A stretch of DNA of 64,000 bases from positions 5,520 through 69,519 of the forward strand of contig JAJYFA010000001.1 of assembly GCA_021790995.1 (NCBI GenBank), given 5' to 3'. The translations under genes were made by a program, and so were the position numbers. The notes under the pieces are model-generated. The model was given only the letters and a program-made list of their open reading frames with translations, ran no database searches and was not told the DNA's origin. The DNA comes from Acidobacteriota bacterium. GTDB lineage: Bacteria > Acidobacteriota > Terriglobia > Terriglobales > Acidobacteriaceae. Positions 1 through 36,588 of this stretch are shown here, piece by piece; position 1 is the stretch's first letter, and each line of letters begins with the position of its first letter.

Positions 1-189
1 TGTGTAAAGTCCTTCGCGTTTGCCCAAATTGTACCAATCTGCTCCCAGGAAGCTACGCTCCCGCAAGTGGCTGCACACGCAATCGCCGCACGATTCGGAA
101 AACTTCGATTCGTCTGTTCGTGCAACCACCTGCGCCATGACTAGCCTCTTGCTGCGCAGTGCGGGTGTAGACACGATTGATAGCGAGGC

Positions 190-2196
190 TCAGGGCAGGC
201 GCATTTCACCGGTCGGCTGGAATGCAATTCCCGCCACCGCGGCGCCGGAAGCAAGCACGTCTCTCATGCGGACCGGGTTTGCTCCGCCGCGAACTGCTGC
301 CTGCTCCAGCAGAAGTAACGCCACTGCCGGCTCCGTACCGGCTCGCAAGCGAAATATCCACGGAATGTCAGCGGACGTAAGGGACTTGTCGTCGCTCAAA
401 GCAACCACCGGAACAAAGCATTTCAACGCCAACTGCTCGGAAAGGTGGCTCGCGTCCCGGTCCAGGGCCACGATCGCCACGGCGTGTTCATCCATCAGAG
501 CGTGGACCAGTTGTGTGGAGGCCGCACCCCAGTTCTGCTTGCTATCGATCGGCAGCAGGGTCCATTGTTTTCCGTTGCGGGCGCTGTGCCGCAGCACTGA
601 CTGAACCTCGCGGGACTTAACGGCCTCCGCGGCTTGTGGCCCAAAGACAACCACGCGCACCTGTTCTGCCGGCGCGGCGAGAAACGACGGTGGAGCAAGA
701 CCGACTCCATCTTCGCCTACGCGCGCGTAGGGCACAATCGCCCCTGACGCGTTCGTCGATGCGTGCTGCACTGCGGGCCGCTCGCTCATCGGCTGCAACC
801 GATAAGTGACCGCGCCGTTGTGCACCGTGCCGATGTACATGGGCGACACGTTTTTCTGATTGGGATCGAAGGTCATGTGGGCCGTGACGCCGTCGTACTC
901 CCGGACATTATCAAGCGCGTCCTGAATGCGCACGCGATTCAAACCTGCCTTGCAGATCGAGTCCAGCAGGATATTCATCGCGTCGTAGGCGAGCGAAGCG
1001 AACTGATCGGGCTTTTCGTGGAAGCGGGTCTCGAAACGCTGGTTGAAGTCAATCCAGCGCGGATCGTTGCGCGTCGGGTCGTAGGGGAAGACGGCCTCAA
1101 AGCCCTCGGCGGCTGGGCCAGCTTTTGCAAGAAGCTCAGGCCCCAGCGTGCGATAGGAGCCGAAGACTCGCTGTTTCATGCCCATGGCGCGCATCTGTTT
1201 CAGGATCATTGCGGCGGGAGCTTCGTCGGTCCAGAGCACGATGGCGTCGGCGCGCGATTCCTGAATGATGCGCAACTGACGCGAGAAATCTGTATCGCTG
1301 GCGAAAAACTTTTGCTCGATCACCACGGGATGGCCGAGCCGGCGCGAGGCTGCGCGAAATTTTGGAACGCCCATGCGGCCGTAGCGGTTGTTGATACGCA
1401 GGATAGCAACGCGCTTGAGGCCGAGATCCGTGTAAATGCGGCGCGCCAGCGTGTAGCACTGCACGCGATCATCCTGCAGATCGGTGAAGTACCAGGGTAT
1501 GGAGGTTTCTGGAATGGTGGGATCGGTGGAGGCCGAATTGACAATAGGAATCTCAGCCTTCAACGCTACACGTAGCATGATGTGCGTCGATTCGGAACTG
1601 ATGGAGCCGAAGATCGCCCATGCCTTGTCGTCGTAGATGAGCTTGACGGCTACATCGGAGGCCGAGCCCCAGATAGCGGGATCGGTAGGCCGGTGGCTGC
1701 CTGCGACCGCGCTGGCCTGCCAGTTGTTGTAGTCGCCACGCAAGACGAGCTTATAGGGGATGCCGTTGTAACCGCCGCGGGCATCGGCTTCGTCCACCGC
1801 CATCTGCGCGCCTTGCAACATGCGCCGGCCAAAGACGTAGTCCGGGTCCCTCGGGTCAACGGGCGCAACAAAACCAACGCGCACCTCCTTCAAGCCGCTA
1901 GGATCGGGCGTGTCCCGGCCGGGACCATTCCAGATCGTTGGCTGGAGGTAGTTGAAGTAGTACGGAGTGATGAACTTGGCGTAAGGGCGCATGTCCTTCG
2001 GCTCGCCCGCATAGGGATCGGCAGTCCACGCGCGCTCCGGACCCGGCGGATGAGCGCCGCACTGGCATTTGGATCTCTGCTCGTCCCTGGCCCGAGCCGG
2101 TTGCGTCTTCGGCTGCTGGCACAAAACCGTGGCTGCGCCGCCCACGGCGCAGATGCAGGCTGCAGTCAACCACCACCCTTTGCGCATGGCCATCAC
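190..2196 (-). CDS. Periplasmic substrate-binding protein of ABC-transporter type (type-1 PBP, Leu/Ile/Val-binding-like) with an extra C-terminal PBP-like half
   Basis: 668-aa ORF with signal-like N-terminus WWLTAACICAVGGAATVLC. The blocks VGFVAPVDP..GAQMAVDEADARGGYNGIPYKLVLRGD and RVAILRINNRYG are typical of LivK-like binding proteins. The GTG at 2196 overlaps the stop of the upstream RidA gene; ATG alternatives lie at 2193 and 2187. Confidence 0.75.
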   Translation of the reverse strand: MMAMRKGWWLTAACICAVGGAATVLCQQPKTQPARARDEQRSKCQCGAHPPGPERAWTADPYAGEPKDMRPYAKFITPYYFNYLQPTIWNGPGRDTPDPSGLKEVRVGFVAPVDPRDPDYVFGRRMLQGAQMAVDEADARGGYNGIPYKLVLRGDYNNWQASAVAGSHRPTDPAIWGSASDVAVKLIYDDKAWAIFGSISSESTHIMLRVALKAEIPIVNSASTDPTIPETSIPWYFTDLQDDRVQCYTLARRIYTDLGLKRVAILRINNRYGRMGVPKFRAASRRLGHPVVIEQKFFASDTDFSRQLRIIQESRADAIVLWTDEAPAAMILKQMRAMGMKQRVFGSYRTLGPELLAKAGPAAEGFEAVFPYDPTRNDPRWIDFNQRFETRFHEKPDQFASLAYDAMNILLDSICKAGLNRVRIQDALDNVREYDGVTAHMTFDPNQKNVSPMYIGTVHNGAVTYRLQPMSERPAVQHASTNASGAIVPYARVGEDGVGLAPPSFLAAPAEQVRVVVFGPQAAEAVKSREVQSVLRHSARNGKQWTLLPIDSKQNWGAASTQLVHALMDEHAVAIVALDRDASHLSEQLALKCFVPVVALSDDKSLTSADIPWIFRLRAGTEPAVALLLLEQAAVRGGANPVRMRDVLASGAAVAGIAFQPTGEMRLP

Positions 2197-2693
2197 TCCT
2201 TGCCGCTGTCCCTTTTGTTGCGGAACATGGCGATGGCCTCGATCTCGATCAACAACTCAGGGCGGCAGAGAATCGCCTGAATGCCGGTTGAGGCGGGCAG
2301 TGGATCGAGCCCCTGTTCCTTGAAAAATGCGGTGCGCTCTTCGTTGAACGCCTCGTAGTCGCGCTCAATATCGCGCAGGTAGCAGGTGGTGCGCACGATG
2401 TCATGCCATGTGCAGCCTTCGCTGGCCAGTAAGCCGGTGATGTTGGCAAGCGTGCGCCGCATCTGGGCGCGAAAGTCGCCGATGTGCACACTTTGCCCGT
2501 TCTCGTCGATCGAGGCTGTGCCCGAGATCAGGAGAATCGTCACTTCGCCGATGTCGATCCTCATGCCACGCGAAAACGAGCTAGGCTTGCCGTAGCAGTA
2601 GGCTTCGTTCAGCACGTTGTGATTGGTGATGGCCCGCTTTTCGATCGGGGCGTGGGCGATGGTTTCAAGGATTTCAGCAAGTGCGTTCATCAC
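2193..2693 (-). CDS. RidA/YjgF/TdcF-family reactive-intermediate deaminase-like protein
   Basis: 166-aa ORF. The stretch ISGTASIDENG...FRAQMRRTLANITGLLASEG..WHDIVRTTCYLRDI...ASTGIQA..CRPELLIEIEAIA matches the YjgF/RidA fold signature. It overlaps the next gene by 4 nt. Confidence 0.85.
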   Translation of the reverse strand: MMNALAEILETIAHAPIEKRAITNHNVLNEAYCYGKPSSFSRGMRIDIGEVTILLISGTASIDENGQSVHIGDFRAQMRRTLANITGLLASEGCTWHDIVRTTCYLRDIERDYEAFNEERTAFFKEQGLDPLPASTGIQAILCRPELLIEIEAIAMFRNKRDSGKE

Positions 2694-2724
2694 GATGACT
2701 CCTTTGAAGATTTCTCAAAACGTT

Positions 2725-3858
2725 CTATCGTTGGCGAATTCCGTGGCTCAGCCCCTTCGCCGTTGCGACCCAGATGTCGTCGCCCTGGAAGTCGATGCCG
2801 AGAATGTAATTGTTAGCGGGCGCGGTTGTGACGGGGATATGGGCCACGTTGCCATGGGCATCCCGGACCCACATCTCCGGCTTGCCCGTGGCGAGCGAGG
2901 GTGTATAAACAGCCCAGTTGACGCCATCGTAGTAAGCCAGGCCCTTGTCGGTGCAGAACCAGGCATGATTCGCATCGACGCCCTTCACAAAATTCGTAAA
3001 GTTCGACGGCAGGCCACTGTCTTTGGTGAGGAAGTTATGCCAGTAACGGCCGTCGTAGCGGCTATCACCGAAATAGGTCGATGCCCACACGATGTTGCCG
3101 ACATAGCTGACCGACGAGACGATGTCGTGAACCAGTCCCTGATTCTTGAAGAGGACCAATTCGGTTTCGTCGTCAGGATCGGCGTACATGTCCCATCGGC
3201 CGGTCTTTTGGGTCAGTTCCAGCAAACCGCTGCCCCACACGGCGAAGTAGACTTTGTCGGGCTGCGCAGAAACGCCGTACACCCAGATCTCGCGCATAGG
3301 CGTATTGCGCTCGTTATAGAGCGACCACTGACCGGTTTGCAGATTAAGCCGGCCGGCGCCGGCAGCCGTGGCGACCCACACGTTCCCGCCTTCAACGGAG
3401 ACGCCATAGACGATATCGTTGCTGAGGCCGGAGTTGAACTGGTTGTAGCTGTCGATGCGTCCGGCAGAGATGCGGCTTAGTCCACCCATGGTGCCGGCCC
3501 ACACATCGCCGGTGCGCTTGTCGAGTGACAGCGAAAGCACAGCGCGGTGCGCCAGGCCGTCTTTCGTGTTGAAGGTCTTCCATTTGCCATTCTCATAAAG
3601 CCCCAGCCCGTCGTCGGTACCGGCCCAGATGCGGTCGCCATCCACCAGCACTGCGTAGACGTGATTGTCGGGCAGGCCGTTGGCGGTGGTGAAGTTCTCG
3701 AAACGGAAGCGAGGCATCCGCGGAACAGCCGAGGTCAAAGCGGCCTGGCGCCTGGCCTTCGGCTGCTGCGCGCAGGTGGCCGGAATGACGAGCGCATATG
3801 CAACCGCAACGGCTGCAAGCGCCCACGCCCAGATGCTGTTCTTCCCGCTCTTTTTCAT
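2725..3858 (-). CDS. Secreted beta-propeller protein built of two-component-regulator propeller (Reg_prop) repeats, with no kinase module
   Basis: 377 aa with signal peptide MKKSGKNSIWAWALAAVAVAYALVIPATCAQ. Repeats of the form NFTTANGLPDNHVYAVLVDGDRIWAGTDDGLGLYENGKW / FNTKDGLAH..VWAGTMGGLSRI resemble the periplasmic repeats of the two kinases in this window. Its start overlaps the upstream stop (3855-3858). Confidence 0.75.
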   Translation of the reverse strand: MKKSGKNSIWAWALAAVAVAYALVIPATCAQQPKARRQAALTSAVPRMPRFRFENFTTANGLPDNHVYAVLVDGDRIWAGTDDGLGLYENGKWKTFNTKDGLAHRAVLSLSLDKRTGDVWAGTMGGLSRISAGRIDSYNQFNSGLSNDIVYGVSVEGGNVWVATAAGAGRLNLQTGQWSLYNERNTPMREIWVYGVSAQPDKVYFAVWGSGLLELTQKTGRWDMYADPDDETELVLFKNQGLVHDIVSSVSYVGNIVWASTYFGDSRYDGRYWHNFLTKDSGLPSNFTNFVKGVDANHAWFCTDKGLAYYDGVNWAVYTPSLATGKPEMWVRDAHGNVAHIPVTTAPANNYILGIDFQGDDIWVATAKGLSHGIRQR

Positions 3859-5897
3859 CGCGTCCTCAGATATTCGATGAGGTCGTTGAGCTCATCTTTC
3901 GTAAGGTCGTTGGTACGTCCGTGCTTGTCGCCGGGGTTATAGATGGTCCAGATCTCTTCCAGGGTGCGCGCCGATCCGTCATGCAGGTAGGGCCCGGTGA
4001 GCGCAATGTTCGTCAACTGCGGTGTATCGAAGAGTCCGGAATCGTCGGTGGGCTTCTTTGTGCCCACATCGAAGGATTTTTGATCTGTGCCTAGCGGTCC
4101 GCTGTGGCAATAGTTGCAGCGGTTGGCGAGCGGAATGGGATAGCCGAACTTATCCTTCGTCCGTTCGAAGAGTTCCTTGCCGCGTTCCTGTGCCGTAGTG
4201 AGTTCGCCTGAGGCCATCCGCCAGCGGTTGGGCCGCGCAGGCAGGCTCAGAATGTAGCCGACCAGATCGGCCAGCGTGACATCGTCATACGTCTCCGAGC
4301 GCCAGAAATACTTCTCCGTGCGTGGGCCGCATTCGGTGGGCACATCGGGATTGCCGCCGTTCCACTTATAAGGCGCCGTATCCCGGATGTCCTCTAAAAG
4401 CCGGTTGTCGACAATATTGCGCCCGAAGCCATCCGGCTCCAGATCCCATTCCAACCCGTCGAAAGTGGAATCGATGTGGCAGTTGGCGCAGCCGATCTGA
4501 CCCTGGAAGGAGTAGCGCGCCGTATAGAACGTCTGCTCGCCGCGGCGCAGCGCCACAACCTGTTTGCGCATGCTCAGATCCATCGGCGAGTCCTGCCGAT
4601 GGCGTTCGTCGATATGGCACTGAGAGCACCGGGGCTTGCCATTGGGCCGGTCGTTGACCGCGGAGAAGATACGATCGCTGAATTGCATCGACCAGAGCTG
4701 ACGTGAACCGGCGAGCAGAATCGTGGAGATGATGCGATCGGTGCGGGTATCGATCACGCTGATCGAATCGTCGAGCCGGTTGGCGACCAGGAGCCTGCGG
4801 CCGTCGGGGGTGAGGGTTGCGCCGCGCGGATCGTGCCCGACGGGGATGCGCGCAATCACATAGTTGGCGCTGGCGGCAAGATCTTCTGCATAGGGTCCGC
4901 GGTGCGTGCGGAGATAGCGCAGCAGATGAGGCACATCGATGGCGAGGACGGCCTCCGAGCCGCCACAGGTGACAAACATCCGAGACTTGTCGGGTGTGAT
5001 GGCCACGCCGAAAGGACGCGCGGAGTAGCGATCGAGTTCGTCGAGAGGAATCTCCACCGATTTGCCGCCCACATCCGCGCCAAAGAGCGTCAGTGTGTCG
5101 ACGAAGGCTCCGCCGTGCTCCAGGTGCGCCAGCGGAACAAGGTTTTTCGGATGCAGTTCGGCCGCCGCGCCCAGCCGGCCGTCGGCGGAGATGGCCACGT
5201 GAAAAACGCCGGCGATACCGTGGAGCGGGATGCGATCGACCACTTCGGCGCGCGCGGTGTCTATGACCGTGATCTCCGACTCGGGCGGAGTGCGCTCGGG
5301 GCCCGGATTCGGGTAGATGTGCGTGACGTAAAGACGCTGGCCCTCCGCAGAAGGCGTAATATAACTGGCGCCGCGCCCGGCCAGCAGACGCTTCACCTCT
5401 GCGCCGGTGTGCGCATCGAGCACGGCTACATCGTCGGAGATGCGATTGGCGACAAACAGGTATTTACCCGCCCGATCCTCGACCACGCTCGATGGCTCCG
5501 CGCCCACTCTCCAGGTAGCAATCACGTCGAGGGCCTGCGTGTCGATCACCGAAACGGTGTCGTCCCAGGAGTTGGCGACAAAAAGCCTGCGGCCATGGGC
5601 CGAGAGCGAGAATCCGCGTGGCGAGTGGCCAACCACGATGCTCTTGATGGGTACATAGGTTACGGCGTTCAGTACACGCACCTCGTCACTCTGGCTGGCC
5701 AGCACGTAAAGCTGCGTCCCATCGTGAGAAAACAGCATTTCTACAGGCGAGGCATAGTTCAGAATCTCGCCGGATTCGCCGGCAGCATCCACGCGCGCCG
5801 TACTGTTCCACGCAGAGGCGCAAAAAAACGTCGCAGCCAGCGCGGCCAGGCAGGCGCCTGCGCTTGTCCTGAACCGGCTGATGGCGAACCGCCTCAT
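3855..5897 (-). CDS. Fusion of an N-terminal YVTN-type beta-propeller with a C-terminal dihaem cytochrome c peroxidase/MauG-like domain
   Basis: 680 aa with a signal-like N-terminus. Propeller repeats include LFVANSWDDTVSVIDTQ, LFVANRISDDVAVLDAHTG and LLVANRLDDSISVIDTRT. There are three CXXCH motifs (CSQCH, CANCH, CNYCH). The CCP C-terminal signature FDTPQLTNIALTGPYLHDGSARTLEEIW is present. Confidence 0.8.
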   Translation of the reverse strand: MRRFAISRFRTSAGACLAALAATFFCASAWNSTARVDAAGESGEILNYASPVEMLFSHDGTQLYVLASQSDEVRVLNAVTYVPIKSIVVGHSPRGFSLSAHGRRLFVANSWDDTVSVIDTQALDVIATWRVGAEPSSVVEDRAGKYLFVANRISDDVAVLDAHTGAEVKRLLAGRGASYITPSAEGQRLYVTHIYPNPGPERTPPESEITVIDTARAEVVDRIPLHGIAGVFHVAISADGRLGAAAELHPKNLVPLAHLEHGGAFVDTLTLFGADVGGKSVEIPLDELDRYSARPFGVAITPDKSRMFVTCGGSEAVLAIDVPHLLRYLRTHRGPYAEDLAASANYVIARIPVGHDPRGATLTPDGRRLLVANRLDDSISVIDTRTDRIISTILLAGSRQLWSMQFSDRIFSAVNDRPNGKPRCSQCHIDERHRQDSPMDLSMRKQVVALRRGEQTFYTARYSFQGQIGCANCHIDSTFDGLEWDLEPDGFGRNIVDNRLLEDIRDTAPYKWNGGNPDVPTECGPRTEKYFWRSETYDDVTLADLVGYILSLPARPNRWRMASGELTTAQERGKELFERTKDKFGYPIPLANRCNYCHSGPLGTDQKSFDVGTKKPTDDSGLFDTPQLTNIALTGPYLHDGSARTLEEIWTIYNPGDKHGRTNDLTKDELNDLIEYLRTR

Positions 5898-7693
5898 TGC
5901 GGCTCCTCCACCGTAAGAACACGGTCCACACCCACATTTTCGAGCGTTTGCACGCGCCCGCTCGGCCAGCGAACCGTCAGCTTGTCGATGATATCGGCCG
6001 CACCAAGCCCAAAGTGCAATCGGCCGTCATTCTCGGAGAGATAGCCGGAACTGGCAACGCGCTCCGCGGTCCATCGACTGCCGCCGGACAGCACTTCAAC
6101 CCGGGCGCCGATGCCGTCGCGGTTGCTCTTTGCAGCGGCGCCGGGAGCCCTGCCGTGATCGCCGGCGCGCATCGCGCCTACCAGCTTCAGGTCAATCCAG
6201 TGGCCTGTGCCGGTAGAAACATTCTGAAGCAGCTTGCCTTCCGCGCCAAGATTGACCATGAATGCGCCAACTTTGCCGTTGTTCTGGTAGTCGGCGAAAC
6301 ATGCCCCGCGCGCCACCGTGCGGTCGCTTAGCACCTGCCCCGCCTGGCGCGAATCGTCCTCGAACTTTCCGTTGCCGAGGCCGCGAAAGAGTGTGTGCTC
6401 CATCGGGATGAGATGAATCAGCCCGCCGTGGAAGACGAGAATGTCCAGCTCACCGTCATTGTCGAAGTCGTAGACTCCTGAACTCCAGCTCACGTACTGC
6501 GCATCAGTCTGTGAGATGCCGGCGGGTGCGGTGACATCGTCAAAACCCTTCCAGTCGTATTTTGCAACCGGCGCTCCAGGCTGCGGAGCGCCCAGGTTCT
6601 CGAGAAAGCGGTTGTAGCTGCCATCCGTCACCCACAGGTCCAGCACACCGCGGTGCCAGAAATCGGCCGCCACCGGCCCCATGGACGAAGTTGCTTCGCC
6701 ATCCTGCCCGTAGGCCGATCCGGTGTCGTTGGCAATCTCTTCGAAGGTTCCATCGTGCTTGTTATGAAAAAGAAAGTTCTGGATGCTGTCGTTGGTGACG
6801 TAGATATCGTCCCAGCCGTCGTTATCGAAGTCTGCCGCGGTGACGCCCATGGTGCGGCCAATATAAGCGCCGATGCCTGCTTTATCCGTCACATCGGTGA
6901 AGGTTCCGTCGCAATTGTTGTGGAACAACCTGTTGGTTTCACCCGCATAGTCGAGCGGCCCCGGATAGTTATCGGCGGCATAGAATGCGCGATAGGTGGG
7001 ATCGAACTTTACATAGCGGCCGACGAGCAAATCGAGGCAGCCATCCCTGTCGTAGTCGAGCCAGGTGGAGCTGATGGCCCAGCCGTCGACCTTGATGCCG
7101 GCCTTGGCGGTTACGTCGGTAAAGTGGCCGTTGCCGTCGTTATGGTAGAGAACCACCTTGCCGAAGCCGGTCACCAGCAGGTCTTCGTTGCCGTCATTGT
7201 CGTAATCGCCCGCGGTGGCGGCGATGGAATACATGTTGGGATCGAGACCTGATTCTGCCGTTACGTCAGTGAAATGGCCGTTGCCGTCGTTACGATAGAG
7301 ATAGTTGTGCGGCGGCGGATTGGGCTTCTCCTTGAGCGGATACGGATGCATTGAATCGGCGAGGGGACGGCCGTTCACAACATAGAGCGAAGGCCGGCCG
7401 GAGTTGTTGTAGTCGAACCAGACACAGCCTGCGCCGGTGCCCTCGAGCAGCGAACCCAGTTTGGCTGAGCCGAAGCTGTGCACAAAATGGATGCCGGAGT
7501 CCCCGGTTGCGTCCTCGAAGCGGATCGTTGCGTGAGGCGGCGATGGCGCCTCAGCGGACTTCGTTTGCGTTACGGATGGCGCGTTTTGTGCGGAGGGCTG
7601 CCCGGAAGGCGCGCACGACGAAGACAGCGGCGCGCCGGATTGCGCCGCCGCAACCGAAACTGTGCTCAAAAAGAACAGAAGACCAAGGCGCAT
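5894..7693 (-). CDS. CRTAC1-family protein (FG-GAP/VCBS repeats plus ASPIC/UnbV C-terminal domain), paralog 1
   Basis: I trimmed the track ORF (to 7897) to the ATG at 7693, which gives signal peptide MRLGLLFFLSTVSVAAAQS and sits 1 nt after the upstream stop. Repeats include GDYDNDGNEDLLVTGFGKVVLYHNDGNGHFTDVT and FDNDGWDDIYVTND. The UnbV_ASPIC-like tail is RDGIGARVEVLSGG..SSGYLSENDGRLHFGLG....VRWPSGRVQTL. Confidence 0.85.
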   Translation of the reverse strand: MRLGLLFFLSTVSVAAAQSGAPLSSSCAPSGQPSAQNAPSVTQTKSAEAPSPPHATIRFEDATGDSGIHFVHSFGSAKLGSLLEGTGAGCVWFDYNNSGRPSLYVVNGRPLADSMHPYPLKEKPNPPPHNYLYRNDGNGHFTDVTAESGLDPNMYSIAATAGDYDNDGNEDLLVTGFGKVVLYHNDGNGHFTDVTAKAGIKVDGWAISSTWLDYDRDGCLDLLVGRYVKFDPTYRAFYAADNYPGPLDYAGETNRLFHNNCDGTFTDVTDKAGIGAYIGRTMGVTAADFDNDGWDDIYVTNDSIQNFLFHNKHDGTFEEIANDTGSAYGQDGEATSSMGPVAADFWHRGVLDLWVTDGSYNRFLENLGAPQPGAPVAKYDWKGFDDVTAPAGISQTDAQYVSWSSGVYDFDNDGELDILVFHGGLIHLIPMEHTLFRGLGNGKFEDDSRQAGQVLSDRTVARGACFADYQNNGKVGAFMVNLGAEGKLLQNVSTGTGHWIDLKLVGAMRAGDHGRAPGAAAKSNRDGIGARVEVLSGGSRWTAERVASSGYLSENDGRLHFGLGAADIIDKLTVRWPSGRVQTLENVGVDRVLTVEEPQ

Positions 7694-7694
7694 C

Positions 7695-9107
7695 TCAGTT
7701 CCCCTCCTGTCCTGCACCGCGAGATTTGACCGGCTTCGGCGGGACGGTGAGGTCGACAGGCGTCGTGGTGTGCAACAGCACAGCCGGCACGCGGTTTTCC
7801 GCTGCGCGCTCAGGCCCGGTGTGGCAGCCAACGCAGATGCGCTGCTCGCCGCCGCGCGCCCAGAACCAGCCGCGCTCGCGCCGCACCACCGCGCCATCCC
7901 GATTCAGCAAGGTGAAACGAATGGGCGTGTCGCCCGGAACCTTCACGAAAAACGATCCATCCCGCTCCACGGGCGCCGTGCCCATCGAAATTGCCTTTCC
8001 GTTCGCATCCTGCATCTCAAGCCTCACCGATGCGGACGCGGTCTTCAGATCGCCTTCGCGAGACAGACGCGAATCAAAGGCCAGCAAGTTGGCGTAGTTC
8101 CAAGGGTGTAGCCCTGAAGGATGACGATTGGGCCGTTCCCTGGGAGTCACAGGCGCCGGCTCGACGAGATCCATGCCCTGTTTCGCAAATTCGGGCTTCA
8201 TGGTTGGCGCACCCGGCCTCCATAAACGGATCGCATAATGCTCGTCCGCTGCCGCTCGTACGCTCACCAGCCAGGCATCCGCGGCGATCTCAGCAATAGC
8301 GCCCGCGTACTCGCCGCGCGGCGCGGCCACCGGCGTCTCATGAGCCAGCGGAGAAGTGAAACGCGCGAGCGACGTGCCGTGGGTGAAGATCGTGTCACCG
8401 GAGCTCAATTGCGTTCCGCCCCAGCGTGCGCGGCCGTGATCGCAGCGGTAAGACTCCACCCCGGAACCGTCGGCGTAAACCAGGTACAGCTCCGGGGTCG
8501 AGCTCCGCCCAAGAGGAAAACCAGCCTCAAACAAAATGCGCCCATCCTGCAAAACCGCATCTGGAAACGCACTGGCGTGAAGATGCGAGAGCGGCAGAAA
8601 ACCGGGGTCGGCCGTGGGATTGCGCGGTGGGTTTTTCTGCGGGCGGCCATCGTCGGAGGAATCGAGATCGAATCCACTGGGAGTCCGCTGGGCCCAGACT
8701 AACCGGCCGCCGGGAAGATACAACGGGCGCTCGGCATCCGTTGCGGTCGTAACCACGCGTCGCACGGATCGGTCCTGAAGGTTCAGTTCCCAGATTTGCC
8801 ACGGATCGCTGGCGATTTTCTTGCCTGCAAACAGTACCGACTTGCCGTCGTAGGAGACATCGGCATCGGCTGAAGCAGCAAAGTCCGGAACCAGAGGCTC
8901 CGCCTTGCGGTTGTGAACCAGCAGCAGATGCGCGCCGGATGGGAAACGCTCCTCGCCGCGCAACTCGGCAAGCGGCTTATAGACAGGCGCGGAAGTGACA
9001 ATGAAATCCACACCCGGCGCCTGTTGCGGCGTGGGTGCGAAGCCACACAACGCAATCAAGACAAGCAGTGCGGCGCCCGTAGCAAGCATCAGGAGTCCTG
9101 CTCTCAT
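7695..9107 (-). CDS. Exported HzsA-related protein: TolB/PD40-like propeller region, hydrazine-synthase-alpha-like Ig/middle domain, single C-terminal CXXCH
   Basis: 470 aa with signal/anchor [51 protein letters not shown] is TolB-like. The C-terminal block [71 protein letters not shown] matches my memory of the family annotated 'HzsA-related protein' (Pfam HZS_alpha). The domain call was not verified by search. Confidence 0.55.
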
Positions 9108-9994
9108 CCTGTCACCGCCTCCAGGACTTGCTTGTCAGTTGTCCGAAGGCCGCGCGGCTCCCGCGCGCGAGCTGCGATCCAGGGCTCAAGATCGGCCATC
9201 ATTGCGTCGAATTCCGCAAAGTCCAGGGATTGCTCGCCGTCGCTCCACGCTGTGTCAGGATCGGGATGCACCTCGACGATCAGCCCGTCGGCGCCGGCTG
9301 CCACGCCGATGCGCGCCAGAGCAGGAACCAGTGCGCGATGCCCGGCCGCATGGCTGGGATCGGCGATTACGGGGAGGTGCGTCACCTGCTTGAGCAGTGC
9401 GATGCCCGCCGCGTCAAAGGTGTTGCGCATGGCGGTTTCAAAGGTGCGAATGCCGCGTTCGCACAGAATGACCCAGGGATTGCCATAGTCCAGAACGACC
9501 TGTGCCGAATGCAGAAAGTCTGCGAGGGTCGCCACCATGCCGCGCTTGAGCAGGATCGGACGTCCGGACCGGGCAGCGGCTTCAAGCAGCGCGTAGTTCT
9601 CCATATTGCGCGAGCCGATCTGCAAAACATCGGAGTATTCGGCCACAAGCGCCACGTCTGTTTCCGACATCACCTCGGTCACAACCGCCAGCCCCGTGGC
9701 TTCGCGCGCGTGGGCGAGCAGCTTCAGCCCAGCCAGGCCCAGGCCCTGAAATGCATAGGGAGAACTGCGCGGCTTGAATGCGCCGCCGCGGAGCATTCGC
9801 GCTCCACCTCGGCGCACATGATGGGCCGTGGCCATGATCTGACCTTCCGTTTCCACCGAGCACGGCCCGGCGATAGTGATAAATTCATCTCCGCCCAGAA
9901 AAAAATCGCGCACCGGTACCCGCGTCCGCTGGTCGAATGCGCCCAGCAGAACATCGGGACTCTCAGCAAACTGCTGCCGCCGGCTTTCGCGCAC
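9104..9994 (-). CDS. aroF: 3-deoxy-7-phosphoheptulonate (DAHP) synthase, class I-beta
   Basis: 296 aa. Motifs [48 protein letters not shown] and ADPSHAAG are those of the DAHPS I-beta/KDO8PS family. Its stop overlaps the start of the HzsA-related gene (9104-9107). Confidence 0.9.
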
Positions 9995-10060
9995 GCAGAG
10001 AACTCCCTCCGACCTCCATCTCTATTGGGGAAGCGCCAGTTTAGCGTGATTGCGATCCCG

Positions 10061-10085
10061 GCGCCTCCACCGAAAGGTGGAGCGC
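10061..10085 (-). other. GC-rich stem-loop between the amidase stop and the aroF start
   Basis: gcgcctccacc-gaaa-ggtggagcgc forms an 11-bp stem with one bulge and a tetraloop, lying 5-29 nt downstream of the amidase stop at 10090. No U-tract follows on the minus strand, so it may be a processing or attenuating structure rather than a classic terminator. Confidence 0.3.
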
Positions 10086-10089
10086 TGAA

Positions 10090-11499
10090 TCAGGGAAACA
10101 CGATGGCAGGGGGACGGTACCCGAATGCGGCATCGACAACAGCGGCTATGCCCAGTGCTGTCTCGTCTTCAAAGGGCCGAGCCGCAATCTGCACGCCGAC
10201 AGGCAGACCCTCCGGCGAGCGGCCGACGGGGACCACCGCTGCCGGAGCGCCCAGTGTGTTGAACCACTGCGTATAGCGAACCGCATCAAGATAGGCAACA
10301 GAAGCGCCGTCGATCGTCCAGCGGCGCTCTCCGTGGCGGAATGCCGGAATAGCGGCTACCGGACACAGCAGGACCGGATACTCCTTCATCTCTGCAAGCA
10401 TCTTTGAGCGCAGCAGATCCATTTCGGCCCAGGCATTGAGCAGTTCCGCGGCCGTGAGCGAGCCTGAGGCTTCGGCGATCATCAGAAACTCGGTGAAGAT
10501 GGGGCTGAGCTGCTCGCGCCTGCCGCGAATCTCCGGCTCATAGAACATGGCCCCGCACTGCACAAAGAATGTCCACCAAAGCTTGCGCAACGGCTCGAGC
10601 GCGCGCGGCCGGAACGGTTCCACGCAAAAGCCGGCGCCGCGCAGCGCAGCCGCCGCGGCATTCACCGCGGCGCGCGTCTCTGGCGTTACAGGAACCAGGC
10701 CATCATCCTCGAAGAGGCCGATGCGCTGGGAGCGCAACTCATCCAGGCTGCGCTCTCGATACGGAAGCGGAGGACTTGCAGGATCGAGCGTGTCCTGGCC
10801 GCAGAGCGCGCGGAAGAGCAGCGTGACATCGGCAGCGGTGCGCGCCATGGGCCCGATGGCGCCGAGCGTGGAGAACGGCCCCACGCACGGCGGCAGATGG
10901 CCGCGCCCCGGAATCCGGCCTGGCGTGGGCTTGAGCGAGCAGATGCCCGTAAAGTGCGCCGGAACGCGCACCGACCCCCCGCTATCGCTGCCCAACCCGC
11001 CCGCCGACATCCCCGCGGCAATCGCCGCCGACTCGCCTCCGCTCGACCCGCCGGGCGAGCGATCCAGATCCCACGGGTTGTGGACGCGCCCATACAGCAG
11101 GTTCGCGGTTTCGTAGGCCATCAGGAATTCAGGGCAATTCGTCGTGCCCAGAATCAATGCTCCCGCCGCGCGCAGCCGCGCGACGACAACCGCGTCCTCG
11201 ACCGGCACATCGCCCTTGTGCAGCAGGCTGCCGATCTCACAGCGACAGCCCCTGGTCGCAATCGACGATTTGACCGTGACCGGCAGGCCGTGCAGCGGAC
11301 CACGTGGTTCCGGCGCCGCGTCGAGCCGCTGCGCCTCTTTGCGCACGCGGCCTGCGTCGAAGTCGGCGAAGACGTTCAGTTGCGGATTCAGCCGCTCGAT
11401 CTGGAGGATATGCGCTTCGGCCAGCTCGGTCACGGTAACTTGGCCTATGCGCACCAACTCGATCTGTTTCGTCGCCGGGGCCAGAACGAGATCGCTCAT
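10090..11499 (-). CDS. Amidase (amidase-signature family, GatA-like)
   Basis: 469 aa with the canonical AS signature GGSSGGESAAIAAGMSAGGLGSDSGGSVRVPA. Its start overlaps the upstream stop (11496-11499). Confidence 0.9.
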   Translation of the reverse strand: MSDLVLAPATKQIELVRIGQVTVTELAEAHILQIERLNPQLNVFADFDAGRVRKEAQRLDAAPEPRGPLHGLPVTVKSSIATRGCRCEIGSLLHKGDVPVEDAVVVARLRAAGALILGTTNCPEFLMAYETANLLYGRVHNPWDLDRSPGGSSGGESAAIAAGMSAGGLGSDSGGSVRVPAHFTGICSLKPTPGRIPGRGHLPPCVGPFSTLGAIGPMARTAADVTLLFRALCGQDTLDPASPPLPYRERSLDELRSQRIGLFEDDGLVPVTPETRAAVNAAAAALRGAGFCVEPFRPRALEPLRKLWWTFFVQCGAMFYEPEIRGRREQLSPIFTEFLMIAEASGSLTAAELLNAWAEMDLLRSKMLAEMKEYPVLLCPVAAIPAFRHGERRWTIDGASVAYLDAVRYTQWFNTLGAPAAVVPVGRSPEGLPVGVQIAARPFEDETALGIAAVVDAAFGYRPPAIVFP

Positions 11500-14400
11500 G
11501 GTTGCATGCCCTGTGTCGCGCTACGCGGCAGATCGCCGCTCGGCGTCGAGGGCAACGGCTGGTAGTCGAAGTAGTGCAAGCCCTCCGGATCACCTGAGTT
11601 GAAACGGTCGTTCCAGTTCAACCGGTAGTCGAGCTCTGCTGCACTGGCAGGGTGTTCTTCTTTGGGATAAGGGTAGGCGCTCATTCCATGGAATGGCATC
11701 TGCGCCACGGTAAATGGCGAGGCGTCCCACCAATCCATATCTTTCACGAATCCGTTGGCGTAGAAGAAGTAATCACGCTTCCAGTGCGCAGGCAACGAAG
11801 GCAGTGCAGACGCGTCGAACTCGGCCGCAATGCCTTCGCCGCTGCCGAAAATCGCAAACCGATTGTCGACGCCTTTGAGAAGCGAGGTGACATCGCCAAA
11901 GTGCGTATAGCTGCCGCGCTCACTCTGAAAAGGGCCCGTCAGGCTCACGAGGTTGTAGTCGTAGGTGAGATCGCCGGGGCTGGCGAGGTCGATCTCCTTC
12001 GGGTAGCCGCGGAAGTGCAGGGTCGCCGTAGCCAGCGGAACCTCGGTGGCGCGCGCTTCGGCGTTCGCGCTTTGATCAATCAGCGCCTGATCCCAGTAAA
12101 TTTGCAGGTTCGTCATCAGGCGGATACGGCGCGTGCCCGCGGGCAGCTTGCCGGTCAGGTCCATCACGATCGTCCGCTCCAGTCCGGCCGGGAATCCCGC
12201 ATCGCCCGTGACTCGCTTCCAGGTTCCGTCAGGCAGCGCGGCCTCGACATAGGGCGGAATCTCCTTGATGCCCGCCTGCCAGGCAGCATAGAGCGAGGTG
12301 GCGCTGAAGTAGTTTACGTAGCCGGTCATCAGCAGCCGCAGCGGAGCATGAGAATCGATCGCGCCCAGGTCAAGCGTGAGCGCGTGCAGATCGGCAAATC
12401 CGTCATAAGGAAGTGGATGAAAACCGCTCGCAAACACATGATCGCGGCGGCTGAGCTGGTCGAGCACGTCGCGCCCGTCGCCGTCCCAGGCGCCGATGGG
12501 CAACCGCACGCCCTTGCTGGCCACGACGCGGCCCGAGGCAAACGGCGGACTGTCGAGGAACCGCTCGTCGGGGTTTACCTCAACGTCCTCGGGATGGTCG
12601 ACCGCAACCATGCGGAGCTGGTCGATATAGTTCACCTCTTCCATGGGCTCCATGAAGCGCACACTGATCCTGCCGTTCACCAGCGCCACATCGCTGCCGT
12701 CCACCTTCACCCATTCGCCGGGATTGGGGATGTTGCGCCGTGTGGGCGTGAACCAGTGCCCAACCACGGCCGCACCGATCACGTCGGTAACGAATTCGTA
12801 ACGGCGCCCGTTCCACACAAACAGGACCGGGCAGGAGCTGCCCCGCCGGTCGGCCTCTTTCATCGCGATGACCTGCTGGTGCGGAAGATCGATCTCGTCT
12901 TGAAGCACGCCTGTGGGCCACAGGATGCGCAACAGATCGATTCCCGGCGCCTGTCCCAGACCCACAAGAATCTGCGGCGGCGCCTGCGTCCGATAGCCCG
13001 ACGCGCCCGCCAGTTCCCACTTCTGCCAGAGTCCGTCGGCAAACACTTCTACCTTTACGCCCAGTGCTGTCTTGTTGTCGGCCAGACCGCCCAGATCGAG
13101 GCGCACGAAGTGGTTCTTGTTGGCGCCCATATTGCGCAGCAGCACCGGCGGAGCATTTTTCTGAATCACGATCAAATCGGGCGCGCCATCGCCCACCACT
13201 TCAGCGGCAACCAGCCCGCGCGGCGCAGTGAGCCGTATGCGGTCAAAACCCAGCGCGTGGCTCACGTCTTCAAACGTGCCGTCGCCGCGATTGCGGAAGA
13301 CACGCACCCGCGGACCCGCTCTGGTCTGCACAATGGCCGCGAGATCAATCCATCCGTCGTTGTCGATATCGATGGGCGCGAGGCCCCAGCCGCGGGTAGC
13401 GCCCTTGAGCGGCAGCGCGACACGCTCGAAGCGCCGCCCGACTCCGTCCGGCCCTGCAACGTTGCGCCACAGCGTCAATCCCGGCGCGCCGCGATGCGTC
13501 ACGGCGATATCCATCCAGCCGTCTTTGTTGTAGTCGAGAACGGTAATGCCCTCGGTCGGCGGCAGCTGGGCGTCTTCGTAAAGCGGCTGCGCGGGATACT
13601 TGCCCTCGCGCGGGTTCACATAAATCACGGGCGCCGAACCGCTGCCTGTCACCGCCAGATCCACGGCCCGGTCGTTATTGAAGTCGGTCAGAATCGCCGC
13701 TTCAGTTTTGCCGCTTCCGCCCAAGCCCGTCGGTTCCGTTTGTTCAGTGAAGGTACCGTTGCCGTTGTTGCGCCACAACACGTCCGGCTCGCCGCCGGAC
13801 GGGAGCGGCGCTCCGGTCAGGAATAAATCGAGATCGCCGTCGTGGTCGTAATCCACAAAGGTGATGCCCGTGGGCCGGTTACGCGGCACAATGCCCGACC
13901 GCGCGGTGACATCCTGGAAATGTCCGTGCCCAAGGTTCCGAAACAGGAGCACGCGATCGTTCATGGCCACAGCCAGATCGTTGAGTCCATCGCTGTCAAA
14001 ATCGCCTACGGCGCATGCCGCAGCGTGGCCACTGGCCTTGAGCCCCGCTGCCTCGGCATCCCATTCGGAGAATTTTCCGCCGCCGGTATTGTGCAGCACG
14101 CGGATGGCCTGCTTGCCCGACTGCATCAACACCAGATCCATCTGGCCCGAACCGGTAGCGTCAATCATGCAGGCGCCGCCCGTGGTCGTGAATGCGGGTA
14201 CGGAGGCTGCTGCAATCAAAGGCTGCGCCACGAGCCGCACCGGGATCATCGCACGCTCAATTGTCTCTGGCTCTGCAACAGTATTGACTGTCGAATAGTG
14301 CCCTTGCTCTCCATAGGCCAACCCCAGCGCCGACGAGATCTTGGTGCTTGTCAGGTGTTGAAACCTCGCAAAGTGTTTCCTGGCATCCGGCGTGTCGCCC

Positions 14401-14933
14401 ATGCGTTGCAGAGAACGTGCCAGCGCGAACTCTGCCGATGCGTGCAGCGGGTTGATGGTTAGCACCTTTTCGTAGATCGGAACTGACTTGTCAAACTCCC
14501 GCATGGCCTGATAGCAGACGCCCTCAAAGTAAAGCGAGTCCGCGTCTCTTGGGTCAATGCTTGCCGCCTTCTGGAAGCTGGCCAGCGCGGCGGTAAAATC
14601 GGCGTCCGCATGTTGCGCGAGACCCAGGTTGTACCACGCCTGCGCACTATTGGGATCGAGTGTGATTGCCCGTTCGAGCGCCTTCCTGGCTCCGTCCAGC
14701 TTCTGCAGCGTGAGCAGCGCGATACCCTCGTTGATGGCGGCCTGCGCCAGGCTGGGATCTTTTTTGAACGCGGCGGCAAAATCGTCAGCCGCGCGCTGGG
14801 TAAACTGCTGGCTCATCAGCGCCACGCCGCGATTATTGAGGCGGATCGCTTCGCGATCGAAGCGCGGCTGCGCGCCGCAAAGCGCCGCAGCTCCTGACAT
14901 AGCGAGGAGTATCCATCCCCAGCCGCTTCTCAT
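11496..14933 (-). CDS. Large secreted TPR + FG-GAP/VCBS + ASPIC/UnbV (CRTAC1-type) protein with a ~447-aa uncharacterised C-terminal module, paralog 2
   Basis: I trimmed the track ORF (to 15164) to the ATG at 14933, giving signal peptide MRSGWGWILLAMSGAAALCGAQ; ATG 14969 is the alternative. It has N-terminal TPRs (AWYNLGLAQHADADFTAALASFQKAASIDPRDADS), FG-GAP repeats (GDFDSDGLNDLAV, DYDHDGDLDLFLTG, DIDNDGWIDLAAI) and an UnbV-like block (ALGVKVEVFADG..ASGYRTQ). The tail begins SSCPVLFVWNGRRYEFVTDVIG. Confidence 0.85.
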   Translation of the reverse strand: MRSGWGWILLAMSGAAALCGAQPRFDREAIRLNNRGVALMSQQFTQRAADDFAAAFKKDPSLAQAAINEGIALLTLQKLDGARKALERAITLDPNSAQAWYNLGLAQHADADFTAALASFQKAASIDPRDADSLYFEGVCYQAMREFDKSVPIYEKVLTINPLHASAEFALARSLQRMGDTPDARKHFARFQHLTSTKISSALGLAYGEQGHYSTVNTVAEPETIERAMIPVRLVAQPLIAAASVPAFTTTGGACMIDATGSGQMDLVLMQSGKQAIRVLHNTGGGKFSEWDAEAAGLKASGHAAACAVGDFDSDGLNDLAVAMNDRVLLFRNLGHGHFQDVTARSGIVPRNRPTGITFVDYDHDGDLDLFLTGAPLPSGGEPDVLWRNNGNGTFTEQTEPTGLGGSGKTEAAILTDFNNDRAVDLAVTGSGSAPVIYVNPREGKYPAQPLYEDAQLPPTEGITVLDYNKDGWMDIAVTHRGAPGLTLWRNVAGPDGVGRRFERVALPLKGATRGWGLAPIDIDNDGWIDLAAIVQTRAGPRVRVFRNRGDGTFEDVSHALGFDRIRLTAPRGLVAAEVVGDGAPDLIVIQKNAPPVLLRNMGANKNHFVRLDLGGLADNKTALGVKVEVFADGLWQKWELAGASGYRTQAPPQILVGLGQAPGIDLLRILWPTGVLQDEIDLPHQQVIAMKEADRRGSSCPVLFVWNGRRYEFVTDVIGAAVVGHWFTPTRRNIPNPGEWVKVDGSDVALVNGRISVRFMEPMEEVNYIDQLRMVAVDHPEDVEVNPDERFLDSPPFASGRVVASKGVRLPIGAWDGDGRDVLDQLSRRDHVFASGFHPLPYDGFADLHALTLDLGAIDSHAPLRLLMTGYVNYFSATSLYAAWQAGIKEIPPYVEAALPDGTWKRVTGDAGFPAGLERTIVMDLTGKLPAGTRRIRLMTNLQIYWDQALIDQSANAEARATEVPLATATLHFRGYPKEIDLASPGDLTYDYNLVSLTGPFQSERGSYTHFGDVTSLLKGVDNRFAIFGSGEGIAAEFDASALPSLPAHWKRDYFFYANGFVKDMDWWDASPFTVAQMPFHGMSAYPYPKEEHPASAAELDYRLNWNDRFNSGDPEGLHYFDYQPLPSTPSGDLPRSATQGMQP

Positions 14934-15004
14934 CGTCTTCACATTCACCTGAATACTTCTCCCTCGCATGGAACTCACCAGTATACGGAAACGCTCACCG
15001 TGCC

Positions 15005-22200: not shown

Positions 22201-22288
22201 GCGAAGCGAAGCGGGCGAGGGAACGATGGTCCGTTTGCGCGCGCCAGCTCGTGGAGGAGCGCGTGAACAGGGGAGGAAAAAAGAGTGA
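19271..22288 (+). CDS. Sensor histidine kinase with periplasmic Reg_prop beta-propeller repeats and a Y_Y_Y domain, then HisKA_3 and HATPase_c
   Basis: 1005 aa with many repeats of the type ENGLPQNTVQALAQTRDGFLWLGTEAGLIRFDG. The Y_Y_Y block is VRYRYMLQGFDRGWTEAGARRAAYYTNIPPGRYTFRVQA. A TM segment is followed by the H-box RIAREIHDTLAQG and the ATPase region EVRDNGRG...FGLVGMRERA. The GTG start at 19271 is uncertain. Confidence 0.85.
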   Translation: MSLCRPGFRDARCVWGSGGRGLFGVTIQRIVIPVLLCWAVAAIALEPSTPLANYGRQAWSMENGLPQNTVQALAQTRDGFLWLGTEAGLIRFDGVKFQIFDRNSNPALPGTDIRALLATRGGALWIGTDAGLARWKGGSARVFTANDGLPDNGIVALDEDASGTLEVWTEQGAVRMVGDRFVPLTGGAIPPTALPAPGQYPGVTLFEAQMPNGISLTGDRSVLHLASSRKAAGVATRLAVGRELPGTRIQAVLADREGALWIGTNAGLVRWTNGKVERFPFTDPLSTASILALKEDREGDLWVGTETDGLDILRDQRFHTLDTREGLSSDRITTVVEDAAGSLWVGTQSDGVNVLRRGAGSAEWRVTRTLTVANGLASNVILSLAAAPNGDVWVGTPDGLNRIHGGHVDTFTSADGLPDDFIRSLLVDSDGSLWVGTRRGLTHWETGKSGPKNFIYGARMETYTHANGLGSDLVGAMARDAGGKLWVATLAGLSQLDRHTISNFTTANGLSSNVVTALLPRSDGTLLIGTQDHGWEVWDGRKFSRAMRDGLEQTTIYAILDDGEGHLWFATGNGIARCDCRAIGGKDRAQGLSHSMEFGTADGLRSRETATNSHPSAWRSRAGTLWFATPKGLVEVDPAHFPVNTIPPEVALERFAVDDVAQPLHGAGSWLKVRAGRVHFEFDYAGLSFVAPQKVRYRYMLQGFDRGWTEAGARRAAYYTNIPPGRYTFRVQAANNDGVWSTADAELSFELRPHFYQTLWFYLLLLAAGTGAVMFVWRLRLGRAQREFQAVLAERSRIAREIHDTLAQGYAGVSVQLEVLAELLRQHKMADAAKQLDKAREHVRHGLADARQSIWALRTQDPGEDTLPVKLRRIVDAAGVNGLISHFNLFGAYRPLPVEMERELLRVAQEAIHNVKKHASAGDIWVHLEYGPEAIVLEVRDNGRGGAMESAAESGRTQFGLVGMRERAATIGAILEVRSEAGEGTMVRLRAPARGGAREQGRKKE

Positions 22289-26265: not shown

Positions 26266-26462
26266 GGTGACCTCGTCTAGGGAAAAAGCAAAGGAGCCAC
26301 TTGAGCATGACGGGCAGCCCGCGCAGCGCACAAGCAACTTTCGATGGAGATGGCGCTCCAACCACTGAGAAACACTGACGGCAACTCACGCGGGAGTGAG
26401 CCTGCCGCATCCCGCGAGCGGCATCAACCTATTGGTTGAGATTCATCCGCATCCAAAGCAGG

Positions 26463-36569: not shown

Positions 36570-36588
36570 CCGAGATGTATCGGCAACA

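Follow-up and report, generated by a model that had tools for sequence, protein, structure and literature searches.

Hydrazine synthase, the anammox enzyme, was long treated as an enzyme without relatives. Here we describe a locus in a 64,000-nucleotide stretch of contig JAJYFA010000001.1 (GenBank assembly GCA_021790995.1, Acidobacteriota bacterium), referred to in its full length as the window, where four coupled minus-strand genes at 2725-9107 encode homologues of all three hydrazine synthase subunits together with a CRTAC1-family protein and a Reg_prop propeller. It is probable, in our judgment, that the four products form a haem-protein complex in the periplasm, one of common descent with hydrazine synthase and probably of similar architecture, but not itself a hydrazine synthase. 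A sequence-only reading of this DNA, made without database searches, had proposed that the three modules of hydrazine synthase, with beta and gamma fused, occur here in a non-anammox genome, and sequence, profile and fold searches agree on this point. The domain and homology matches lie far beyond chance and, judged by sequence together with fold searches, the proteins are genuine, if distant, relatives of all three subunits. In order of transcription, the four genes are:

7695-9107, minus strand: HzsA (alpha) homologue, 470 residues (Pfam HZS_alpha, PDB 5c2v_A, Foldseek)
5894-7693, minus strand: CRTAC1-family protein, 599 residues from the Met preceding the signal peptide (Pfam FG-GAP_3, UnbV_ASPIC)
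3855-5897, minus strand: fused HzsB-HzsC (beta-gamma) homologue, 680 residues, three CXXCH motifs (5c2v_B, 5c2v_C, NCBIfam hydrazine_BC)
2725-3858, minus strand: stand-alone exported Reg_prop beta-propeller, 377 residues (Pfam Reg_prop, PDB 4a2l)

The open reading frames (ORFs) and junctions are as had been read from the letters, namely four consecutive exported proteins joined by stop/start overlaps or a 1-nt gap. The Reg_prop and beta-gamma genes share an ATGA overlap (3855-3858), as do the beta-gamma and CRTAC1 genes (5894-5897), and the CRTAC1 and alpha genes are separated by 1 nt in the arrangement TGA-G-ATG (7693/7695). All four products have signal-peptide-like N-termini. A further coupled junction, absent from the earlier reading, is found at the start of the alpha gene, which is overlapped by the stop codon of a DAHP-synthase gene, again as ATGA (9104-9107); this overlap joins a cytoplasmic DAHP synthase to the exported alpha homologue. 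An Rfam search of bases 1-17000 at E<=1 gave no match, and promoter and terminator scans of the locus returned signals at or under chance level.

The alpha homologue is composed of a signal/anchor sequence, a TolB-like propeller, an HZS_alpha middle domain and a single CXXCH motif. Its description as a TolB-like, HzsA-related protein, and the suggestion that a significant HZS_alpha match should be sought, were both borne out: Pfam HZS_alpha (PF18582) matches residues 374-429 with 63.2 bits (E 3.4e-17, gathering score 26.6) in a block that terminates in CVGCH, and TolB is recovered by profile and by fold. When the single sequence was searched against all of the PDB, the sole significant match was HzsA of Kuenenia stuttgartiensis (5c2v_A, E 7.9e-10), aligned in two stretches that cover the first propeller blades and the middle domain up to the CXXCH. 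A profile of 14 family members found HzsA at E 3.3e-21, followed by TolB at ~5e-7. Foldseek with a poor AlphaFold2 (AF2) model of the protein also placed 5c2v_A first (E 1.2e-12) and TolB next; the AF2 models used here were built from alignments of 31-32 close relatives. The haem motif of the protein is located as follows:

7821-7835, minus strand: haem-alphaI-type motif CVGCH, residues 425-429, with TGPERA coming next (alignment to 5c2v_A)

At this motif, RICSGCHYGSYR of the alpha homologue is aligned with 5c2v_A. Because there is no Tyr where Kuenenia has CSGCHYGSYR, the proximal haem ligand Tyr591 of HzsA, which stands four residues past the CXXCH His, is absent, and a Tyr at this position was found in none of the 14 aligned family members. 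The protein has 470 residues, compared to 782 in the PDB chain of HzsA, and since it ends 41 residues past its single CXXCH it has no C-terminal, bis-His haem-alphaII domain. Across 40 diverse alpha homologues C425, C428 and H429 are invariant, whereas no other His and no Met is conserved. With the CXXCH His as the only conserved candidate iron ligand, the alignment suggests an alpha haem with an open or exchangeable sixth position. The region around HzsA Cys303, part of a zinc site with alpha-His587, gave no alignment in sequence or profile searches. A propeller motif, DC[IV]RP, has its Cys in 34 of the 40 homologues and in Kuenenia HzsA (GTCRSP); at this position, residue 125, the Acidobacteriaceae sub-lineage of the window has Ala (TDAERP).

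Both parts of the fused beta-gamma protein are recognized in PDB sequence searches, with an HzsB alignment that spans the whole chain (5c2v_B residues 14-352, E 1.9e-33) and an HzsC alignment in two stretches (5c2v_C, E 3.4e-23). The top named NCBIfam matches are hydrazine_BC, hydrazine_beta and hydrazine_gamma, the best of them being the model for the hydrazine synthase beta-gamma fusion (hydrazine_BC, 173.1 bits, E 7.7e-51). Pfam matches are to YNCE, Lactonase and Cytochrom_D1 propellers and to CCP_MauG (34.8 bits, cut-off 25.6), the last of these confined to residues 593-650. Together with the three CXXCH motifs at residues 424, 470 and 594, these matches support the earlier description of 3855-5897 as a YVTN propeller fused to a CCP/MauG-type dihaem domain, although membership in the dihaem CCP/MauG group holds at the superfamily level only. 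The parts of the protein are:

4713-5756, minus strand: seven-bladed YVTN-type propeller, HzsB-like, residues ~48-395 (confident part of the AF2 model)
4560-4706, minus strand: linker insert of ~46 residues (within residues 398-446) with CSQCH, residues 424-428, at bases 4614-4628
3858-4559, minus strand: HzsC-like dihaem domain (alignment to 5c2v_C and 7 homologues)
4476-4490, minus strand: CANCH, residues 470-474, in the dihaem domain
4362-4364, minus strand: Trp512, aligned with gamma-His144
4329-4331, minus strand: Cys523, aligned with gamma-Cys165
4104-4118, minus strand: CNYCH, residues 594-598, in the dihaem domain

In the Foldseek comparison with Kuenenia hydrazine synthase that had been suggested from the letters, the corresponding subunit came first for the propeller as it did for alpha: 5c2v_B was matched at E 2.7e-29, with a TM-score of 0.86 and a root-mean-square deviation of 3.0 A over 348 columns, far ahead of other propellers. 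Within the dihaem domain, the N-terminal haem domain (residues 450-581) matches HzsC only, not CCP or MauG. The C-terminal haem region, which carries a PYLHDGS motif, also matches MbnH (6e1c E 1.3e-11; TIGR04039 51.6 bits), CCP and MauG. In HzsC, the catalytic haem is held by an unusual third covalent bond, from gamma-Cys165. The counterpart of this residue is Cys523 (TECGP), which aligns with the RVCG of HzsC, is kept in all eight beta-gamma proteins compared, and is predicted to form the same bond; Trp512 occupies the gamma-His144 position in the same number (8/8). The linker insert that carries the third haem motif is present in 18 of 32 close relatives aligned, window included (660-703 residues, three CXXCH), and is missing in the other 14 (627-636 residues) as well as in 7/7 more distant beta-gamma proteins examined. 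Since the insert is patchy in close relatives and missing in distant ones, the third haem is, on this distribution, a recent and variable addition, and plausibly an extra electron-entry haem.

Set against HzsABC of Kuenenia (5c2v), the window cluster has the same three modules, namely a TolB-like propeller joined to a haem-carrying middle domain, a propeller of seven blades and, with its third Cys, a CCP-like dihaem domain. Of these, the gamma-Cys165 counterpart and the seven-bladed beta propeller are hydrazine-synthase features that have been kept. Beta and gamma are fused, as they are in Scalindua HzsBC. The genes are adjacent in both systems, but their order is reversed here, with alpha first, and the CRTAC1 and Reg_prop genes are interposed or appended. 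Identity is ~15-26%, and the window cluster lacks the proximal Tyr591 and the haem-alphaII domain and has Trp at gamma-His144. Scores against the NCBIfam equivalog models are 50.1 bits for alpha (cut-off 800), 173.1 for the beta-gamma fusion (1250), 133.9 for beta (560) and 85.5 for gamma (625). In addition, the host is a peat heterotroph, no anammox genes were seen in the 64-kb window, and neither hydrazine dehydrogenase nor HAO was seen there.

Relatives of the alpha protein are numerous: at E<=1e-5 there are 3,747 among 90%-identity protein clusters and 2,547 among 50%-identity representatives. A pattern scan for alpha, which used the 14-sequence alignment and covered one genome per species, gave 552 confirmed stretches, and gene order was read in the best 80 of these 552. 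With four identical or near-identical metagenome contigs, the best 80 make up a set of 84 Acidobacteriaceae-type loci; more distant loci were sampled singly through exact-protein look-ups. The best 80 are nearly all labelled as Terracidiphilus or Acidobacteriaceae metagenome-assembled genomes (MAGs), many of them from peat, bog, fen and palsa, with bog, fen or palsa in their isolate names. The nearest of them, at 90% identity, belongs to a Terracidiphilus sp. MAG, in keeping with the earlier impression of an "Acidobacteria-like" genome. Two of the best 80 (L073 and L080) are labelled otherwise, as Rhizomicrobium sp. and Betaproteobacteria bacterium MAGs, with alpha proteins 65-67% identical and the same gene order. 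Locus L093 also has the same gene order, and its assembly's protein is labelled Bryobacteraceae. Binning errors are a more likely source of these three foreign labels than transfers.

Among the 84 loci, the beta-gamma gene is missing only at contig ends. Of the more distant loci with room for both genes, where alpha identity is 27-51% and the flanks are different, 8 of 8 have alpha and beta-gamma side by side. Co-occurrence of the HzsA-related and propeller-CCP genes in relatives had been named in advance as a check, and wherever a related locus extends far enough, the two are neighbours. A CRTAC1 gene lies between them in 82 of the 84 loci and in distant loci L089 and L091, and a Reg_prop gene follows beta-gamma in 75 of the 84 and in distant loci L088, L089, L091 and L093. 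Both of these proteins are better conserved than alpha (60-79% identity where alpha is at 40-47%). The alpha/beta-gamma pair is the invariant core, and CRTAC1 and Reg_prop make a conserved four-gene version of it. Gene orders in the distant loci include:

L089: alpha-CRTAC1-betagamma-RegProp, 41% alpha identity
L091: alpha-CRTAC1-betagamma-RegProp, 31% alpha identity
L092: CRTAC1-alpha-betagamma, 27% alpha identity; clade III-like order (see below)
L087, 7942-13156: CarboxypepD_reg protein-alpha-betagamma, 33% alpha identity
L090, 3543-8598: CarboxypepD_reg protein-alpha-betagamma, 39% alpha identity
L086, 8666-13871, GCA_002307235.1 (Terracidiphilus MAG): bicupin-alpha-betagamma-Rid, alpha 40-43%

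Locus L086 is a second, paralogous cluster type without CRTAC1 and Reg_prop genes, with a beta-gamma protein at 49% and a Rid protein at 69% identity, the Rid protein being far better conserved than the haem proteins that it accompanies. A third type is seen in L087 and L090, where a secreted protein of 634-670 residues made of CarboxypepD_reg-like domains is encoded directly upstream of alpha; in L090 an AhpC/TSA peroxiredoxin gene is found just downstream on the opposite strand.

Clusters of this kind have been reported. Hagglund et al. (Genome Biol Evol 18:evaf244, PMC12758564, December 2025) sought hydrazine synthase (HZS) homologues by sequence and structure and described four clades in which organisms other than anammox bacteria have an alpha gene co-localized with a fused beta-gamma gene; that hzs-like genes might make up a wider enzyme family had been proposed earlier (PMC10732223). 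In clades I-III alpha is upstream of beta-gamma, with a CRTAC1/FG-GAP gene between the two in clades I and II and upstream of alpha in clade III (PMC12758564). Clades II and III have short alphas, without haem alphaII and the last ~100 residues, and extra beta-gamma haem motifs number zero in clade II and one in clade III (PMC12758564). In the non-anammox homologues Tyr591 is lost and gamma-His144 is replaced by a Trp at the position of the catalytic Trp of CCP and MauG; the Mg-binding Glu of the blade-6 loop is not conserved, and Cys303 is conserved neither in the homologues nor in all anammox bacteria (PMC12758564). Solute-binding-protein genes lie downstream of clade III clusters, and the supplementary hit tables list Terracidiphilus beta-gamma proteins (PMC12758564). 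The homologue clusters were judged not to be hydrazine synthases, and no function was proposed for them (PMC12758564).

Judged by its predicted products, the window locus belongs to these non-anammox HZS homologue clusters. Its gene order is that of clades I and II: alpha comes first, then a CRTAC1/FG-GAP gene, then the fused beta-gamma. It resembles the short-alpha clades II and III, with which it has in common a short alpha without alphaII, the absence of Tyr591 and a Trp at gamma-His144; a solute-binding-protein gene is nearby, as in clade III. Because such clusters were published in December 2025, the locus is an addition to a known kind. The sequence-only reading had stated that no function is known for this combination in such genomes. 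This holds insofar as none has been proposed, but the combination itself, alpha with CRTAC1 and a fused beta-gamma, had already been described (PMC12758564). There are differences in emphasis and in content. The paper stresses anaerobes of Planctomycetota and Desulfobacterota and names one acidobacterium, Paludibaculum, with Terracidiphilus only in the supplementary hit tables. The terms Reg_prop, two-component, RidA, DAHP and amidase are not in its main text. The extra haem, zero or one in the published clades II and III, is a variable insert among close relatives of the window, and gamma-Cys165, reported by Hagglund et al. for clade I, is kept in the window lineage too.

The two remaining members of the four-gene module were also correctly recognized from the letters, as a CRTAC1/ASPIC-UnbV protein next to the haem genes and a sensor-type propeller that lacks a kinase. 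The CRTAC1-type protein (5894-7693) combines a signal peptide, a propeller of the FG-GAP/VCBS kind (Pfam FG-GAP_3, 124 bits) and, at the C-terminus, UnbV_ASPIC (83 bits), and matches human CRTAC1 (9etn, E 1.9e-12); a literature search on CRTAC1/UnbV with cytochromes gave nothing useful. The product of 2725-3858 matches Reg_prop (29.1 bits, cut-off 20.4) and, in the PDB, 4a2l (E 1.4e-24), a sensor propeller from hybrid two-component kinases of Bacteroides. It shares the repeat type of such sensors (Bacteroides BT4663) but is a single 377-residue propeller without kinase, Y_Y_Y domain or membrane segment after the signal peptide, and its gene is translationally coupled to that of beta-gamma. The window also encodes two full-length sensor kinases of the Reg_prop, Y_Y_Y, HisKA_3 and HATPase type (19271-22288 and 38029-41040, both plus strand), the latter with genes for an outer-membrane barrel of the TonB type (33276-36569) and a TPR protein (36575-38032) ahead of it. 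The kinase-less propeller is a member of a repeat family that is expanded in the source genome. A second CRTAC1 paralogue of 632 residues is encoded at 23537-25435 on the plus strand and is followed by a 768-residue protein (26436-28742, plus strand) that carries five CXXCH motifs (Cytochrome_C554-like) and, at its C-terminus, TPR repeats. Since c554 domains are fused to beta-gamma homologues in clade I (Hagglund et al. 2025, PMC12758564), this pentahaem protein could, by analogy, be an electron partner acting in trans.

The four genes lie within a minus-strand run of nine genes at bases 190-14969, transcribed in the order 11496-14969 to 190-2196. The other five are:

11496-14969, minus strand: exported TPR, FG-GAP and UnbV_ASPIC protein, ~1157 residues from the Met used by relatives (Pfam); peripheral
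10090-11499, minus strand: amidase-signature enzyme, cytoplasmic (Pfam Amidase 344 bits); peripheral
9104-9994, minus strand: type I-beta DAHP synthase, cytoplasmic (NCBIfam NF006421 382.6 bits, cut-off 335); peripheral, a lineage-specific neighbour
2193-2693, minus strand: Rid (YjgF/L-PSP) family protein, 166 residues, cytoplasmic (Pfam Ribonuc_L-PSP 68.6 bits)
190-2196, minus strand: 668-residue exported protein with a Leu/Ile/Val-type solute-binding domain (Pfam Peripla_BP_6 160 bits; PDB 4gnr E 6.8e-25)

Signal-peptide-like N-termini are present in the solute-binding and large TPR proteins and are lacking in the amidase, DAHP synthase and Rid protein. The start of the TPR protein is supported by gene calls in relatives (1151-1159 residues in L001-L004). 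In the product of 190-2196, the Peripla_BP_6 domain covers residues ~120-465, with ~100 extra N-terminal and ~200 extra C-terminal residues that match no family, and no transporter permease or ATPase genes adjoin it. The DAHP-synthase gene adjoins alpha in 77 of the 84 loci and in L085, L088 and L093; it is lacking in three of the 84 (L009, L074 and L083) and absent from distant loci L086, L087, L089 and L090. In L085 this gene and alpha are still neighbours at 48% alpha identity, with another gene (PilZ) upstream of them. The amidase gene is syntenic only within Acidobacteriaceae-type loci, and it and the solute-binding protein are absent from the same four distant loci. The DAHP synthase, amidase, TPR protein and solute-binding protein are lineage-specific neighbours. 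Elsewhere in the window are a 1240-residue GH53 galactanase with ricin-type lectin and Ig-like domains (29283-33005, minus strand) and a GH2 glycosidase (41732-44371, minus strand), enzymes that fit a plant-polysaccharide-degrading peat heterotroph.

As to function, the reading that we favour is that of a complex of hydrazine-synthase ancestry in which alpha and beta-gamma would assemble as in hydrazine synthase, with two open-site haems. Electrons would enter via the gammaII-like haem, and also via the linker haem in the sub-lineage of the window, and would pass through Trp512 on their way to the gammaI-like haem, which would be Cys-linked and have an open site. There a small oxidant would be reduced, nitric oxide (NO) being the first guess and H2O2 or O2 the second, and the product could go on to the open alpha haem, where a second step other than N-N bond formation would follow. 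The CRTAC1 and Reg_prop propellers would be structural or ligand-binding subunits. NO/hydroxylamine-type chemistry is ranked first because the gamma domain, in its catalytic-haem half, is like HzsC alone and keeps the peculiar Cys of HzsC, with peroxide-driven oxidation of the CCP/MauG/MbnH type second; the substrate is a guess, and so are the N-oxide, hydroxylamine and peroxide proposed in the sequence-only reading. Several observations weigh against this reading. The AF2 model of alpha is poor (predicted local distance difference test score, pLDDT, 60.6) and its TM-scores are low, and for this reason the fold evidence is read from rank and E-value only. The beta-gamma model is also poor (pLDDT 60.9), and because its haem domain, at below 50, is unusable, the fold evidence for this protein is limited to the propeller. 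The residue gamma-Asp168, which has been proposed to donate the proton in NO reduction (PMC12607021), is not strictly conserved: its position is taken by a Thr, with Glu528 one position off and Ala there in two homologues. No nir, nor or hao genes were seen among the window ORFs examined, and nothing points to a nitrogen-oxide pathway. Finally, the inter-haem Trp and the CCP/MauG/MbnH-like C-terminal region fit peroxide chemistry equally well.

That last point is the basis of a different explanation, in which the locus encodes a peroxide- or O2-driven oxidase of the MauG/MbnH/CCP type. The dihaem gamma-like domain would form a high-valent state shared across the Trp and would either oxidize residues of a partner protein (alpha, CRTAC1 or Reg_prop) to build a cofactor or metal site, or detoxify H2O2. 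The domain has two c-type haems, an inter-haem Trp and a C-terminal haem region with PYLHDGS in common with this superfamily, and Trp512 stands in place of gamma-His144 as in CCP and MauG (PMC12758564). However, only the C-terminal haem region aligns with MbnH, CCPs and MauG, whereas the catalytic-haem half aligns to HzsC alone; in addition, the domain shares a chain with a propeller, and its gene is paired with that of an HzsA homologue. Likewise, it is HzsC that has the third Cys conserved here, and we know of no third haem-binding Cys in CCP or MauG. MauG and MbnH genes adjoin the genes of their protein substrates, which is in favour of such an activity, but no candidate target residue was identified here. 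The bicupin (L086) and peroxiredoxin (L090) neighbours of other cluster types would suit it as well, but are single observations. On balance we hold a MauG-like oxidase to be possible but doubtful. Hydrazine synthase proper is rejected on the missing Tyr591 and alphaII domain, the change of gamma-His144 to Trp and the sub-cut-off NCBIfam scores. That the cluster is nevertheless a genuine hydrazine synthase or other N-N bond-forming enzyme, performing a cryptic anammox-like step in peat Acidobacteria, would be in line with the coupling of all three subunit homologues and the kept gamma-Cys165. We consider this very improbable, with no Tyr at or near the Tyr591 position, equivalog scores far under the cut-offs and no hydrazine dehydrogenase or HAO seen in the window; Hagglund et al. 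reached the same negative verdict for the family (PMC12758564).

It could also be argued that the whole nine-gene run is one pathway for an organic nitrogen or aromatic compound, with the haem complex as its periplasmic step and the amidase and Rid protein as cytoplasmic, ammonia-releasing steps. Wherever contigs are long enough the nine genes keep their order, in ~70 of the 84 loci, and also in L088 (51% alpha identity) and L093. The DAHP-synthase/alpha ATGA overlap, the adjacency of this pair at 48% identity, the Rid gene after the second type of alpha/beta-gamma pair and the solute-binding-protein genes downstream of clade III clusters (PMC12758564) can be cited in its support. However, synteny extends past the run to the divergently transcribed sugar-nucleotide genes, which keep their place in 44-52 of 62 loci. 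For this reason we downgraded the nine-gene synteny as evidence of a pathway; among close loci it is mostly relatedness. Further against a pathway are the absence of DAHP synthase, amidase and solute-binding protein from L086, L087, L089 and L090 and of the DAHP-synthase gene from 3 of the 84 loci. The DAHP synthase also scores as an ordinary family member and may be a housekeeping copy. A single nine-gene pathway is therefore, in our estimate, quite improbable.

The non-anammox HZS homologue clusters are the nearest living relatives of hydrazine synthase. With 552 stretches, more than 3,700 90%-identity clusters and a nearest set of 80 loci labelled nearly throughout as Terracidiphilus or Acidobacteriaceae, the family is not confined to a few anaerobes. 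What is added here is that Reg_prop is a conserved fourth gene, that the third haem is a variable insert, that gamma-Cys165 is kept in short-alpha lineages and that the family is abundant in peatland Acidobacteriaceae. Terracidiphilus has cultured representatives, and therefore the function of the family is open to genetics and biochemistry. A more specific proposal, which we rate as unlikely, is that the four-gene module is a periplasmic nitrogen-oxide or hydroxylamine turnover enzyme, widespread in peatland Acidobacteria, that keeps the two-site, tunnel-linked design and the Cys-cross-linked haem. If MauG-like protein oxidation were instead the true activity, ideas on the evolution of hydrazine synthase would change. 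A nitrogen-oxide or hydroxylamine enzyme would show what the ancestor of hydrazine synthase did. It would also be an unrecognized biological sink or converter of NO and hydroxylamine in acidic peat, where nitrite decomposes chemically to NO, and would bear on the nitrogen-gas fluxes from such peat.

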